This document shows, piece by piece, positions 23,815 through 33,522 of a stretch of 64,000 bases of DNA (position 1 is the first letter of the stretch; each line of letters opens with the position of its first letter). The stretch lies in contig VMGF01000001.1 of NCBI GenBank assembly GCA_007376445.1, positions 316,203-380,202 on the forward strand. The letters run 5' to 3'. Both the position numbers and the translations under genes were made by a program. Origin of the DNA: Parcubacteria group bacterium Gr01-1014_3 (lineage in GTDB: Bacteria > Patescibacteriota > Minisyncoccia > UBA6257 > WO2-44-18). Below the pieces are notes generated by a model. That model was given only the letters and a program-made list of their open reading frames with translations. It made no database searches and was not told the origin of the DNA.

Positions 23815-23874
23815 CGCCGTTGGCGGGGCATTGATTTTCCAGCCAATCGCTTCGCTCTTGGGAAAAATCTAATG

Positions 23875-23955
23875 TGCCCAGGGCGGGAGTTGAACCCGCA
23901 CGCCTTTCGGCATACGCACCTCAAGCGTACGCGGCTGCCGTTACGCCACCTGGGC
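23875..23955 (-). tRNA. tRNA-Leu(GAG), type II with long variable arm
   Basis: The reverse complement is GCCCAGG-TG-GCG...CGC-G-TACGC-TTGAGGT-GCGTA-var arm-GCGGG-TTCAACT-CCCGC-CCTGGGC-A. The anticodon loop TTGAGGT gives anticodon GAG. The discriminator is A. Confidence 0.8.
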
Positions 23956-24615
23956 CTATATTATTCCTTGCTTGCCTATTATAGCCAAAGTCCGCTTAAT
24001 TTTCAAATATTTACGCGAGAGATGGGTCGAATGATTTTTATAATAAATTTTTGGCAATAATTTTAAAGATTCCGATTTAGCGTATTTTAAGGCCCGGGCA
24101 GAATTGTTAACACTTTTAGTATAGTGGCCGGTTATTTTTAGATGGTTAAAAATTTGTTTTTGTAGCCAATCAAGGTGCCTTTTGCTCGCAGAAATAAAAC
24201 AAACATAAAACATAAAGCTAGATTTCCAGCGGGGATCCCAATAGGAGTAGAATGTGCCATCGCCATCAAAATGCCCACGAAGGAAGTCCCAGAAATATTT
24301 AACAGGTATGTCTAACTCGCCAAGAGTTTTTGATTTGTTAGGAATCAGTCCTATACCAAGTAGGAACTTGTAGAAATTCACATCACCGAATTGTAGCCGG
24401 GTGACTGTTTTGTGTTTATGCCCGCTCCATTTTTTGCTAATTTTATTTTTGATATTTAAGCACTTTTTAAAATTTTCCAATTGTTCTAAGTCCTGTGACG
24501 TAAAATCAAAATGTCGGCCATCAGGCGACAGATTTCCATCGGTCGTGATTAACCCGATCGCATAGGCGAATTCCGGCGACCATTTAATTTTCACTTTGTT
24601 TTGAGGTTTAGCCAT
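23956..24615 (-). CDS. LAGLIDADG homing endonuclease (double-motif, free-standing)
   Basis: It has two LAGLIDADG motifs, FAYAIGLITTDGNL and FLRGHFDGDGTF, about 100 aa apart in 219 aa. Its stop codon directly abuts the 5' end of tRNA-Leu(GAG) on the same strand. Confidence 0.85.
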   Translation of the reverse strand: MAKPQNKVKIKWSPEFAYAIGLITTDGNLSPDGRHFDFTSQDLEQLENFKKCLNIKNKISKKWSGHKHKTVTRLQFGDVNFYKFLLGIGLIPNKSKTLGELDIPVKYFWDFLRGHFDGDGTFYSYWDPRWKSSFMFYVCFISASKRHLDWLQKQIFNHLKITGHYTKSVNNSARALKYAKSESLKLLPKIYYKNHSTHLSRKYLKIKRTLAIIGKQGII

Positions 24616-24802
24616 TTCTTGTATTATACCTCAAGGTAATAGCGTATGCCAATGGTGGATAATGGCGATTATTTGACGAATTTGAAAATATATGGCAAAA
24701 TGTGCTTGGTATTTTGAAATGGCCCGCCAGAGGCGGGCAGGCTGACTGGAGACCTGGGATGTTCCCGGGGAGACGGTTAGCTACAAAAAAGGAGGTGACC
24801 CA

Positions 24803-25423
24803 ATGGGGAACCTGTTAAGGGAAACGCCGTACTCTGAGATTACGGCAACGCTCGAGGTGCTTCAGAGATTCGGAGTTGAGCGAAAGCATCTTGAAGTGAT
24901 TCGGCAAGACGAGGACTATGCCATTGAAATTGCCCGCGCGATTGTCAACTTGCGTGATCCGACAAGGGTCGCTAGAAAGGTCACTGGTAATTGTTTTGAA
25001 GTTACCATGGATTGTTCTCGGACCCTCGAGCAGATGATAGCCGAGGCTAGGTTTAGCTGGGTCAATCCGGAAATCACCGCGGAGAGATTCCCAGTCAAGG
25101 GAGCCGGCAAATCAAAGGTCTGCGTTGAGCTATTCTCTTACCCAGAGGCCATGACGAGCGAGCTTGTTCTTATAGACCTAGCAATGCGCGGCCTTGAGCC
25201 TGCTCCAATTGAGGTCGGCCTCGCGCTTAGCAGAGAAAATCCTGATCTTCAGCGCCTGTCCCTGATTCCAATGTTTGGTTCCGTCTGGATTGATCCGGGC
25301 AGTATGCGTAAATATGTTCCTACGCTTGGCGGAACTTGGGATGGTGGGCGACGGCTTGATATGATGCTACACAAAAACTATTGGTTTACTCCATGCCGCT
25401 TTCTGGTTCTTCGTAAACCTTAA
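24803..25423 (+). CDS. hypothetical protein
   Basis: It has a strong SD (aaaaaggaggtgaccca). A GC hairpin gcccgccagaggcgggc sits in the leader. A terminator gcccgcaagagaaatcttgcgggcatttttt lies at about 25430-25465. Confidence 0.45.
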   Translation: MGNLLRETPYSEITATLEVLQRFGVERKHLEVIRQDEDYAIEIARAIVNLRDPTRVARKVTGNCFEVTMDCSRTLEQMIAEARFSWVNPEITAERFPVKGAGKSKVCVELFSYPEAMTSELVLIDLAMRGLEPAPIEVGLALSRENPDLQRLSLIPMFGSVWIDPGSMRKYVPTLGGTWDGGRRLDMMLHKNYWFTPCRFLVLRKP

Positions 25424-25479
25424 TATTTTGCCCGCAAGAGAAATCTTGCGGGCATTTTTTATCTCAAAAAACCCACCGC

Positions 25480-25857
25480 TTAGGCGGTGGTTTTTTCTAC
25501 TTCCTTATCTTTGGCGGTAGCGGCTTTTTGCTCTTGGCTAGAGCCGAGCTTCTGGCGGGTTTGTTTCTTGGAGAGATCACGGATGTAATAGATCTTGGAT
25601 CGGCTGACTTTCTTTGGTGAGCTGATGATCTCTACCTTGTCGATCTTCGGAGAATGAATCGGAAAAACTTTTTCCATACCCACGCCAGCCACAGTCGCGC
25701 GGACGGTAAAGGTCGCGCCAGGCTCGGAGCCATGCTTTCTAGCCAAAACCAAGCCCTCAAAGCGGGATAGGCGTTCTTTGTCGCCATCCTTGGTCTTTTC
25801 CCAGACCCGGACCACGGCGCCGGACTTAATCTTCTTCATTACTTCTAAAGACATCAT
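25480..25857 (-). CDS. rplS: 50S ribosomal protein L19
   Basis: It has the L19 signature RFEGLVLARKHGSEPGATFTVRATVAGVGMEKVFPIHSPKIDKVEII and a basic C-terminal extension. A terminator aaaaaacccaccgcttaggcggtggtttttt lies downstream. Confidence 0.9.
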   Translation of the reverse strand: MMSLEVMKKIKSGAVVRVWEKTKDGDKERLSRFEGLVLARKHGSEPGATFTVRATVAGVGMEKVFPIHSPKIDKVEIISSPKKVSRSKIYYIRDLSKKQTRQKLGSSQEQKAATAKDKEVEKTTA

Positions 25858-31595: not shown

Positions 31596-32255
31596 TTACC
31601 GGAAATAGAACTTGCTGAGATCGTTCTTGTTCACCATGATCCAGGCATCCCAGGTGTCGCCGCCGTCGAGTTCGATGGAGATCTTGGTGCCATCTGTGAA
31701 TTTCAGCTCGATGCCCTCGACGCCATTCTCGATCAAGTCGATGCCGTCTGGAGCAATAGTCTTGCCGCCGAATTTGGAACAAAGCTTGGCAGCGAATTCC
31801 TGGCGCGACTTTTTGAGCTTGTTTGCCCTACGCGTTTCAGCCGTCACTTTCGCTCGCTGACTGCGCCTATCCTGTAGCCGCGCATTCTCTTCCTGTGCTT
31901 TCTGGAAGTCTTTCCTGATTTTCGGATACGACACTTCCAGCGCCACTCCCACCGCAGGCACTTCGCGCCAGCCGCCGCCATCGATCTTCTTGCGCTGCTC
32001 CTTTCGCATGAACGTGTGACGGATTACAGCGGTGTAAGGGTTGATGATGGCGATGCGATCGCTCGGGACTTCGAAGTTTCCCTTGTGGGTTTCGATCATC
32101 AATTTCGGTTCATCTCCGAGAAGATGCGCCTTGATTACCGGGAAGTTCGGGAAACTGGCTCCACGCACTCGATGACCACCAGAAACGATCCATCCACCCT
32201 CGTTGAGCTTTTCGATCAGCTTCTCCGCCGACAGCGGCGTCCCGTAGAGTTCCAT
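31596..32255 (-). CDS. hypothetical protein
   Basis: It is a long ORF with good coding character and no recognisable motif. Confidence 0.4.
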   Translation of the reverse strand: MELYGTPLSAEKLIEKLNEGGWIVSGGHRVRGASFPNFPVIKAHLLGDEPKLMIETHKGNFEVPSDRIAIINPYTAVIRHTFMRKEQRKKIDGGGWREVPAVGVALEVSYPKIRKDFQKAQEENARLQDRRSQRAKVTAETRRANKLKKSRQEFAAKLCSKFGGKTIAPDGIDLIENGVEGIELKFTDGTKISIELDGGDTWDAWIMVNKNDLSKFYFR

Positions 32256-32515: not shown

Positions 32516-32590
32516 TGGTGCGCCCTGTAGGGATTGAACCTACGCTCTCACCCATGTCAAGGGTGCGCTTTACCATTAAGCTAAGGGCGC
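32516..32590 (-). tRNA. tRNA-Val(GAC), CCA encoded
   Basis: The reverse complement is GCGCCCT-TA-GCTT...AAGC-G-CACCC-TTGACAT-GGGTG-AGAGC-GTAGG-TTCAATC-CCTAC-AGGGCGC-A-CCA. It is convergent with tRNA-Ile. Confidence 0.85.
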
Positions 32591-33273
32591 ATTTTTATTA
32601 GACGTTCGCAAAATCCTTTACTTATATTAAGTAATTTTCTTTTAATTGCAACATTACCACAACTCACCGCGCAAACACCTTTGTAGCTGGGGTATGTTTT
32701 GGATCCGATAGTTCTTTTATCAAGATTCACAAACTTAAAATTTTCGATTGGTAAATCAAGTTCTTTGGACCAAAATTTTTTCATTTTTTCTGGACTTTGA
32801 TCCGCTCTTAAATAAAGATCGCAGCGCAATTTATCATCCGGGATAAGATAAAAATTTTTCAACATATAAACAAAAGACTTTAATAAGAGTGGGTTGGAGT
32901 TGCCCATACCAGTGCTGTCTTTGCTTTTTATTCCTTCTCCCATGTATAACATTGCCAGGGCGATTTCCAGCGTTGCTTTATTCCGCATATTTAAATTATT
33001 CAGAACCGCCTCCGCCTCCTTTTGCGCCACTAAAAGTCTTTTTTGTTTTTCGTTTCGATGCCACTGGCTTGCCACCTCTCTTGCTTTTACTAAACCATTC
33101 TTCCATCTCTTAATGAGATTCGACTTTTGTTCTTTAGTTAATTCAACATTTTTAAACCAACCACTAAGAGTAGAGCGGTGAATTTTAAGCTCTTTTTCTA
33201 TTCGCCCAATAGACAGGCCGCGCCGTCTTAGATAGATTGCCTTGTGTTTTTTTCTGGACCACTTAGAATCCAT
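32581..33273 (-). CDS. HTH-domain protein with a degenerate LAGLIDADG-like motif (possible decayed homing endonuclease/maturase)
   Basis: It has an N-terminal HTH RGLSIGRIEKELKIHRSTLSGW and a central LEIALAMLYMGEGIK block resembling a degenerate LAGLIDADG. Its 3' end overlaps the 5' end of tRNA-Val by 10 nt on the same strand. Confidence 0.3.
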   Translation of the reverse strand: MDSKWSRKKHKAIYLRRRGLSIGRIEKELKIHRSTLSGWFKNVELTKEQKSNLIKRWKNGLVKAREVASQWHRNEKQKRLLVAQKEAEAVLNNLNMRNKATLEIALAMLYMGEGIKSKDSTGMGNSNPLLLKSFVYMLKNFYLIPDDKLRCDLYLRADQSPEKMKKFWSKELDLPIENFKFVNLDKRTIGSKTYPSYKGVCAVSCGNVAIKRKLLNISKGFCERLIKMRP

Positions 33274-33522
33274 GTATAAATTATAACATCAGTAGTCTGA
33301 TGACGGCAAATAAAAAAACCGGACTATTTATCCGGTCTTTGATTGTCATTCAAGGCAGATCTTGAGACGAGCGTCTCCACAATAAAAAAACCAATGGTCA
33401 TCAATAATGTACTTATAACGATCGGGCTTGGTACGATTCCGCAAAACTGAAGAATCATCATAACCATCAATACAGCCAGTCCCGTGATAGTTGCCCGATG
33501 TTCCGAGATCCAGAACTTCACT

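Follow-up and report, generated by a model that had tools for sequence, protein, structure and literature searches.

Open reading frame 1 (ORF1; 219 amino acids, 23956..24615, minus strand) lies in a 64,000-nucleotide stretch of the genome of Parcubacteria group bacterium Gr01-1014_3, hereafter the window, and encodes the protein G01um10143_365. We propose, with a probability of roughly 0.68, that ORF1 is a free-standing selfish LAGLIDADG homing endonuclease gene carried by a cassette lodged in a tRNA-Leu(GAG) gene. The cassette would measure ~0.7 kb and its host would be the tRNA-Leu(GAG) gene located downstream of rplS (ribosomal protein L19) in Paceibacteria-type candidate-phyla bacteria. 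From 5′ to 3′, the anatomy read from the sequence comprises rplS, a relic of the tRNA 5′ half which extends to nucleotide 37/38, a TATAAT box, ORF1 and a complete tRNA-Leu(GAG).

The ORF1 cassette and its host tRNA gene

The initial annotation of this locus, made from the sequence alone, described a 219-residue LAGLIDADG endonuclease with intact motifs, and several independent matches agree with it. The ORF1 protein carries the motifs AIGLITTDGNL and HFDGDGTF and is recognized by the Pfam family LAGLIDADG_3 (30.9 bits, cut-off 22.5), by the solved archaeal homing endonuclease 2dch (ORF1 residues 17–201, E = 1.3e-5) and by PHROG 4645 ‘endonuclease’ (E = 5e-31). Relatives in phages share 24–30% identity and some of them are annotated as ‘mobile intron protein’. 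The two LAGLIDADG helices each end in a conserved acidic residue, GLITTDG (D26) and HFDGDG (D119). Both catalytic aspartates are invariant in 67 full-length relatives, in which D26, G27, K94, D117, G118, D119 and G120 are all unchanged. Over the family alignment, 63 columns are invariant and the mean column identity reaches 69%. The family is large (4,333 sequence clusters) and is present in 380 species genomes. By these features ORF1 is an intact two-motif LAGLIDADG endonuclease gene.

The position of ORF1 relative to the tRNA gene is equally constrained. Its stop codon TAG ends at 23956, which is position -1 of the tRNA, and the complete, uninterrupted tRNA-Leu(GAG) begins at 23955 on the same strand (23955..23874, or 23875; minus strand; ARAGORN and Rfam, 49.1 bits). 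This contact had been pointed out in the initial annotation and the pattern recurs in the 67 non-redundant relatives: the stop codon lies between -15 and +9 nucleotides from tRNA +1 in 50 of them and inside the tRNA in another 15. A set of 80 loci was fetched on the basis of ORF1 (fetched loci are numbered and labeled L, e.g. L034 or L109). Wherever these loci extend far enough downstream, the gene that follows ORF1 on the same strand is tRNA-Leu(GAG). The adjacency of ORF1 and tRNA-Leu is non-random and constitutes a rule of the family.

Two further observations concern this association. In L126 (291..1077), an ORF1 paralog with 42% identity starts 5 nucleotides after the 3′ end of tRNA-Leu(CAA); this second tRNA-Leu association has the opposite arrangement, and the paralog apparently contains an in-frame stop. 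In addition, numerous contigs stop within ~100 nucleotides after ORF1, at or in the tRNA-Leu gene (among them L002, L005, L006, L011, L012, L019, L024, L032, L040 and L049), which suggests that assemblies break at a conserved, polymorphic site.

A fragment of the host gene is found on the other side of ORF1. In nearly all carriers, the motif TTGGYAKACGC-TATNACC-TTGAGG precedes ORF1 and is directly followed by a -10 box. The motif corresponds to the portion of tRNA-Leu(GAG) that spans D-loop to anticodon loop; in the window it reads TTGGCATACGCTATTACCTTGAGG (24629..24652, minus strand). Aligned with one gap to positions 15–38 of the tRNA consensus, its own consensus shares 21 of 24 bases, and the score of 15 compares with a maximum of 13 in 5000 shuffles. 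A tRNA profile built exclusively from loci without ORF1 matches the place of the relic in 17 loci, always from model position ~13/14 to 37–40, and gave 0 matches in shuffled sequence. A scan of the 1.6 Mb of retrieved sequence places the motif nowhere but in genuine tRNA-Leu genes (23 occurrences) and immediately before ORF1 (48 occurrences). Furthermore, it travels with ORF1 even where the neighboring gene is not rplS.

The extent of the relic varies. Most relics lack nucleotides 1–13, while L075 retains nearly the entire 5′ half, 3 nucleotides after the rplS stop codon (nhmmer, positions 2–39, E = 1.6e-5). The truncated relic of L075 was not reported by the Rfam tRNA model, so that the assignment relies on nhmmer and on the motif. 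In L109, where ORF1 itself is a remnant, tRNA nucleotides 1–20 lie 7 nucleotides after the rplS stop codon. In the window, homology to the tRNA stops at G37, or at T38 when the first T of TATAAT is counted, and 37/38 is the canonical position of tRNA introns. The junction TTGAGG|TATAAT is the same across lineages which differ in genomic context and show 40% protein divergence. Since the relic ends in the anticodon loop, the insertion point at the DNA level would most simply be position 37/38.

The relic may also have acquired a function. Promoters were called by consensus scans and conservation. The TTGGCA of the relic and the adjoining TATAAT, which begins at the junction between relic and cassette (24623..24628, minus strand), score 11/12 as a promoter with a spacer of 18 nucleotides (24652..24623). 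The -10 box ends 7 nucleotides before the ATG of ORF1, and a Shine-Dalgarno sequence is absent; among 41 loci with a recognizable -10 box, the box ends 6–7 nucleotides before the ATG in 26. This proximity, combined with the missing Shine-Dalgarno sequence, implies a leaderless ORF1 mRNA.

A second putative promoter, TTGAAA-17-TATAAT, faces tRNA-Leu from within the last codons of ORF1 (23978..24006, minus strand). It also scores 11/12 and its -10 box ends 22 nucleotides before tRNA +1. Codon usage points to selection on the DNA itself: Leu204 is encoded by TTG in 36 of 39 relatives (background 23%, p = 4e-20) and Ile212 by ATA in 36 of 45 (background 34%, p = 3e-10). Every ORF1 remnant that we found retains this stretch, which fits a tRNA relying on the embedded promoter once it has been severed from rplS transcription. 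The initial annotation had proposed that RNase P processing of the tRNA would define the 3′ end of the ORF1 mRNA; with a promoter inside the 3′ end of ORF1, the tRNA could be expressed without any transcription reading through ORF1.

Just upstream of the -35 box, promoters of the ORF1 family and of a second gene family discussed below (ORF2) show the DnaA-box consensus TTATCCACA or a version with one mismatch in several genomes. Such sites are located at 24662..24654 (minus strand; TTATCCACC) in the window and at positions 1748 in L058, 2924 in L074, 1441 in L079, 4147 in L078 and 1967 in L164. A genome-wide role of this signal was dismissed, as the window as a whole shows no enrichment of the consensus (14 matches, 11 expected).

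LAGLIDADG genes are often intron-borne or intein-borne, and the initial annotation had suggested searching the flanks with intron covariance models. At E ≤ 10, Rfam returned only the tRNA between 23000 and 25500, with no intron model around ORF1, and no intron model around ORF2 between 31500 and 34000. Similarly, no group I intron was detected near ORF1 in 20 relatives at the gathering score. As a positive control, the same search recovered the group I intron that lies inside the 16S rRNA gene of L014. A group I intron around either gene was consequently rejected, in agreement with the earlier impression that no intron structure is evident and that the tRNAs are intact. Given that no intron model matches and that ORF1 is not fused to any host protein, the gene is free-standing and is placed in neither a self-splicing intron nor an intein. 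The initial annotation had also considered a remnant of a lost tRNA intron. An intron as the present state is excluded by the continuous tRNA and by the lack of any ribozyme match; as the origin of the cassette, a degenerate tRNA intron may still be envisaged. The control intron itself (L014, 291..730, 53.4 bits) belongs to a Liptonbacteria genome and is located upstream of an rplS-ORF1-tRNA locus.

Occupied, decayed and empty sites behind rplS

In the window, rplS (25480..25857, minus strand) is found upstream of the cassette. It is the host gene that precedes tRNA-Leu(GAG) in this clade, and its homologs occupy the upstream position in relatives: 70 of the 80 ORF1-selected loci have rplS upstream on the same strand. 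This synteny, together with a conservation above that of L19, hinted at a fixed housekeeping gene, and a sample independent of ORF1 was therefore drawn. Metagenome contigs were searched with an L19 alignment, which yielded 57 loci with tRNA-Leu(GAG) downstream of rplS. Only 7 of these contain a full ORF1, 8 harbor remnants and 42 are empty. This mostly empty sample overturned the housekeeping interpretation, and it provides the survey of relatives which the initial annotation had called for.

The remnants fall into two groups. Large C-terminal pieces of ORF1 persist in L102, L109, L117 and L147, while L151, L082, L142 and L088 have 3′ remnants of 37–106 nucleotides which were detected by nhmmer. 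All eight (37–266 nucleotides) are anchored on the tRNA side, and L082 has kept both ends of the cassette within 120 nucleotides. At empty sites, the rplS stop codon is positioned 2–135 nucleotides before tRNA +1; the tightest sites have a spacing of 2–13 nucleotides and a single tRNA. Carriers and non-carriers are interleaved by L19 similarity and the same samples yield both. Mostly empty sites and interleaved carriers therefore argue that rplS-tRNA-Leu(GAG) is the host arrangement and that ORF1 is an insertion with, judging from the alleles compared, a history of gain, decay and loss. Since empty, full and decayed states coexist among the 57 loci, the sporadic occupation of a single conserved site supports the interpretation as a homing element.

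A few comparisons between neighboring genes suggest horizontal movement, against which stands the vertical signal discussed below. ORF1 DNA is 92–94% identical between L034 (full) and L109 (remnant), as against 75% for the adjacent rplS. The ORF1 proteins of L046 and L049 share 75% of their amino acids at an L19 identity of 44%, and with the pair L029/L045 included, ~75% ORF1 identity is observed at 44–46% L19 identity. More generally, ORF1 identity is nearly flat, at ~60%, over L19 identities of 30–65%.

The anticodon stem offers a hint about the target. Its 5′ strand reads CTACC in 23 of 42 empty-site tRNAs and in 4 of 42 occupied-site tRNAs (p = 8e-6, ignoring phylogeny), and the relic is nearer to CTACC than to the tRNA of its own genome (p = 8e-4, likewise ignoring phylogeny). 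Such a pattern would fit an enzyme that targets the pseudo-palindromic anticodon arm and to which changes in the stem confer immunity.

From these elements a cycle can be proposed. The enzyme would have empty tRNA-Leu(GAG) genes as its substrate, and the cleavage site would probably lie in the anticodon arm CTACC-TTGAGGT-GGTAG. When an occupied allele serves as template for repair of the break, the cassette would be copied into the cut site. Insertion would take place at the classic tRNA-intron position 37/38 without the help of a ribozyme: a second copy of tRNA nucleotides 1–37, carried at the right end of the cassette, would join the resident 3′ half and restore an intact tRNA. On the left side, the D-loop of the displaced half would provide the -35 box and the cassette the -10 box for a leaderless ORF1 mRNA, while the second promoter, in the last ~15 codons of ORF1, would drive the tRNA; consensus promoters and codon bias are the grounds for these two steps. 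Later, deletions which spare the 3′ promoter might remove the cassette, as might recombination of one copy of the 5′ half with the other. The steps of spread and loss are supported by the distribution described above.

Several points weigh against this proposal. Mean identity to the window protein is higher for ORF1 (64%) than for L19 (56%). The Mantel correlation with RluD distances is 0.49 for ORF1 and 0.53 for L19; ORF1 tracks RluD about as well as L19 does, so much of the inheritance is vertical and a role at the level of the host is possible. The tandem layout, taken as sequence, fits an insertion at 37/38 as well as an insertion at tRNA +1 with the relic carried along, the two descriptions being equivalent. 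The rebuilt tRNA keeps its anticodon arm, and self-cleavage would have to be avoided by stem variation; the cleavage target itself is a guess. At conserved tRNAs, the assembly of metagenome contigs may have produced chimeras. The viral contigs of IMG/VR yielded no relatives of the ORF1 or ORF2 families and there is no known vector. Finally, cleavage, mobility and transcription are predicted here. The hypothesis of a phage vector was set aside on the IMG/VR result and on the lack of tblastn matches to ORF2 in phage genomes.

Vertical inheritance and strong conservation could also indicate that ORF1 has been domesticated by the host and serves a cellular function, such as RNA maturation or site-specific regulation, within an rplS-ORF1-tRNA-Leu operon from which it was lost wherever it is absent. 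We regard this as unlikely. The 63 invariant columns and the mean column identity of 69%, an identity above that of a ribosomal protein, the synteny kept in 70 of 80 loci, the correlation of 0.49 with RluD and promoters neatly integrated with the tRNA would all suit such a role. However, 42 of 57 rplS loci have no trace of ORF1, eight more hold dead remnants, and these lineages are interleaved with carriers. The catalytic residues are all kept, as expected of a working nuclease, the L034/L109 segment is incongruent with its surroundings, and a relic of the target gene is a hallmark of insertion.

The relic could have arisen differently, by a tandem duplication of tRNA-Leu(GAG) between whose copies an unrelated ORF was captured and whose upstream copy decayed, with no site-specific targeting. 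Tandem tRNA genes are indeed common and the order of events is unreadable from sequence alone. This scenario is nonetheless quite improbable: the identical junction TTGAGG/TATAAT in diverged lineages and contexts calls for one origin of a unit whose presence is nevertheless sporadic, the tight empty sites have a single tRNA 2–13 nucleotides after rplS, and an intact nuclease active site needs selection for its upkeep. Least credible is a degenerate tRNA intron in which ORF1 is intron-encoded and the tRNA is spliced from the upstream 5′ half and the downstream 3′ half. The relic stops exactly at the canonical intron position, and the closest solved relative is presumably an archaeal intron-encoded enzyme. 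Group I introns do reside in bacterial tRNA genes (PMC3984707). Yet searches at E ≤ 10 return no intron model, the downstream tRNA is whole without the relic, and most relics, devoid of nucleotides 1–13, are unable to form an acceptor stem. We retain the free-standing homing endonuclease as the favored explanation.

ORF2 and tRNA-Val(GAC)

The initial annotation drew a parallel with a second gene of the window, ORF2 (230 amino acids, 32581..33273, minus strand), which overlaps the 5′ end of tRNA-Val(GAC) (32516..32590, minus strand). The overlap of 10 nucleotides is confirmed: the first 10 nucleotides of the tRNA coincide with the last codons and the stop of ORF2, the stop codon being tRNA nucleotides U8-A9-G10. 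Among ORF2 orthologs, tRNA-Val(GAC) adjoins the gene in 10 of 10 loci, with a gap of -10 or +2. Distant paralogs (21–39% identity) abut other tRNAs, namely tRNA-Ile(TAT) in L033, L036, L170 and L173, tRNA-Phe(GAA) in L035, L167 and L172, and tRNA-Gly(GCC) in L078. Each examined member of the family abuts the 5′ end of a tRNA gene, so that the positional parallel with ORF1 extends to all relatives inspected. The family comprises 1,865 clusters and is sporadic: in the fetched loci, copies of those tRNAs mostly stand without such an ORF.

The molecular parallel did not survive. The initial annotation saw in ORF2 a helix-turn-helix (HTH) motif and a degenerate LAGLIDADG block, LAMLYMGEG, and only the HTH can be retained. 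In ORF2 itself the HTH_23 score (19.2 bits) is below the cut-off of 24.6; HTH_23 is found in 26 of 30 relatives, with a best E-value of 6e-7, and one PDB profile match is to the PAI subdomain of Sleeping Beauty (E = 0.006). Helices at residues 6–17, 22–29 and 33–42 of the model form a three-helix bundle, which together with the profile matches of the relatives identifies the N-terminus as an HTH.

No LAGLIDADG profile matched ORF2, its C-terminal domain, 30 relatives or three distant paralogs, even at E ≤ 10, and no LAGLIDADG family occurs among the Pfam matches of the 120 best members of the ORF2 superfamily. The family profiles of ORF1 and ORF2 are unrelated (hhalign probability 0.5%). Structure models of ORF2, with predicted local distance difference test (pLDDT) values of 93.8 and 94.3, show the HTH, a long helix and a C-terminal α/β domain. 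Their best PDB match is insignificant (OmpA-like, E = 6.6e-3, template modeling (TM) score 0.40) and no LAGLIDADG chain appears in the top 50 PDB matches. A LAGLIDADG identity of ORF2 is consequently ruled out by searches of Pfam, NCBIfam and PDB sequences and profiles, by hhalign and by two Foldseek searches. According to the models, ORF2 is a different, unrelated protein which combines an HTH with an α/β domain lacking a match among solved structures. Seven residues are invariant in the family (E113, K116, R156, D158, Q159, D185 and R187), which suggests a putative active site. The proposal of free-standing endonucleases with tRNA genes as homing sites is supported for ORF1, on account of its distribution and of the missing intron, and is not supported for ORF2 as a LAGLIDADG enzyme. 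ORF2 is probably a second kind of mobile gene at tRNA flanks.

The predicted ORF2 promoter, TTGCCG-18-TATAAT with a TG element (33280..33309, minus strand), ends 6 nucleotides before the ATG, which implies a leaderless mRNA, and the spacer motif GTACTNCTGATG is conserved in orthologs. This spacer contains a perfect 6-bp hairpin, CATCAG-ACTA-CTGATG (33302..33287, minus strand), of which the right arm CTGATG is conserved in orthologs; the hairpin as such is not. Two features of the ORF1 cassette were looked for at this locus and discarded. The tRNA-Val profile finds no tRNA-Val relic upstream of ORF2, its two matches being neighboring tRNA genes, and no promoter was called inside the 3′ end of ORF2. 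Without such an internal promoter, tRNA-Val would be processed out of the ORF2 transcript, which would thereby lose its stop codon to RNase P cleavage.

Known systems and implications

By sequence, the best relative of ORF1 among solved structures is 2dch, which we take to be I-Tsp061I, an archaeal rRNA-intron LAGLIDADG enzyme. Both share the monomeric layout with two motifs, although their similarity is low. Free-standing homing endonucleases are known from phage T4, where the Seg and Mob enzymes, including SegB in the T4 tRNA cluster, are of the GIY-YIG or HNH type. These genes resemble ORF1 in being free-standing nuclease genes between conserved genes, in spreading by double-strand-break repair and in targeting a tRNA region. 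In contrast, ORF1 encodes a LAGLIDADG enzyme on a bacterial chromosome, and we know of no duplication of the target gene in the Seg and Mob systems. Integrase-driven genomic islands at tRNA genes depend on a tyrosine integrase, and the segment they duplicate is usually the 3′ part of the tRNA. They likewise target a tRNA gene, are flanked by a partial tRNA duplicate and keep the tRNA intact, whereas the ORF1 cassette contains no integrase and duplicates the 5′ half.

In organelles, endonuclease genes inserted into a host gene bring a duplicate of the displaced end, e.g. in fungal mitochondrial rps3 and atp6. The logic by which the mobile gene restores its host with a copy of the displaced piece is the same. 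The hosts differ: mitochondrial protein-coding genes there, and here a bacterial tRNA gene, of which the 5′ half is duplicated and for which promoters are predicted in the relic and in the ORF. A related N-terminal duplication has been tied to intron mobility in Tremella (PMC8393795).

Group I introns are found in the anticodon loops of bacterial tRNAs and some are mobile by means of an encoded homing endonuclease, as reviewed in PMC3984707. They share with the ORF1 cassette the insertion into the anticodon loop and the bacterial tRNA gene as host. The cassette differs by the lack of a ribozyme; its neutrality would be achieved at the DNA level through the duplicated 5′ half and the embedded promoter. 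Closest in taxonomic terms are the insertion sequences with LAGLIDADG homing endonucleases in rRNA genes of the candidate phyla radiation (CPR) (Tsurumaki et al. 2024, PMC11270868). Those enzymes belong to the same organism group and the same superfamily, target conserved RNA genes and are sporadically distributed. Their elements are placed inside 16S or 23S rRNA insertions, and a large number of these insertions are group I introns which are removed from the RNA. LAGLIDADG_3 proteins were reported only in 16S insertions and that article mentions tRNA 0 times (PMC11270868). The host of ORF1, by comparison, is a tRNA gene without intron, apparently rebuilt by duplication. Our literature search found no description of the ORF1/tRNA-Leu cassette arrangement.

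Two novelties can be proposed jointly, a splice-free homing endonuclease at tRNA position 37/38 and, with the ORF2 family, a new class of homing nuclease at tRNA 5′ ends. We advance this combination tentatively and put its odds below even. In its first part, the duplicate 5′ half may rebuild the tRNA, with the displaced D-loop as the cassette's own -35 box and the tRNA promoter in the last codons. In its second part, the ORF2 family may target the 5′ ends of the tRNA genes Val-GAC, Ile-TAT, Phe-GAA and Gly-GCC.

If true, the first part would reveal a DNA-level route to harmlessness for selfish nucleases. Homing endonucleases in essential genes are thought to persist mainly inside self-splicing introns or inteins. 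The cassette appears to need neither, since it duplicates part of its target and supplies promoters, in a tRNA gene of a bacterial chromosome. Furthermore, it would represent a living mobile element at the site where archaeal and eukaryotic tRNA genes are split or interrupted, which bears on tRNA position 37/38 as a hot spot of interruptions and on how nuclease genes and introns became associated. The annotation of candidate phyla is affected as well: such ORFs are labeled ‘hypothetical’ or ‘intein-containing’ and contigs often break at tRNA-Leu. The 4,333 clusters of the ORF1 family would offer many natural variants against one short pseudo-palindromic site, and the ORF2 family forms a sizeable, confidently folded (by prediction) and unexplained set of tRNA-linked proteins.

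Some minor features of the surroundings complete the picture. Beside the convergent pair of tRNA-Ile(GAT) and tRNA-Val(GAC), the window contains a 219-residue ORF (31596..32255, minus strand) whose only match, to an IS605 OrfB profile, is very weak (E = 0.11). Between rplS and the cassette, on the opposite strand, an ORF of 206 amino acids (24803..25423, plus strand) widens the usual spacer of ~60–200 nucleotides to 864 nucleotides. It has no family match and a single weak relative among the fetched loci (33%, L012). Terminator-like hairpins lie nearby at 25429..25454 (plus strand) and 25490..25473 (minus strand); the latter, called by consensus scan only, marks the end of rplS (25473..25490). 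In other genomes, the tRNA cluster downstream of rplS (Leu-GAG, Val-TAC, Phe-GAA, Gly-GCC) is rich in small ORFs (L172, 1..2540; L167–L169, 1..2460). A 202-residue ORF without assigned family stands behind an empty tRNA-Leu(GAG) in L167–L169, and the cluster of L172 unites an ORF1-family gene, an ORF2 paralog and a GIY-YIG ORF.

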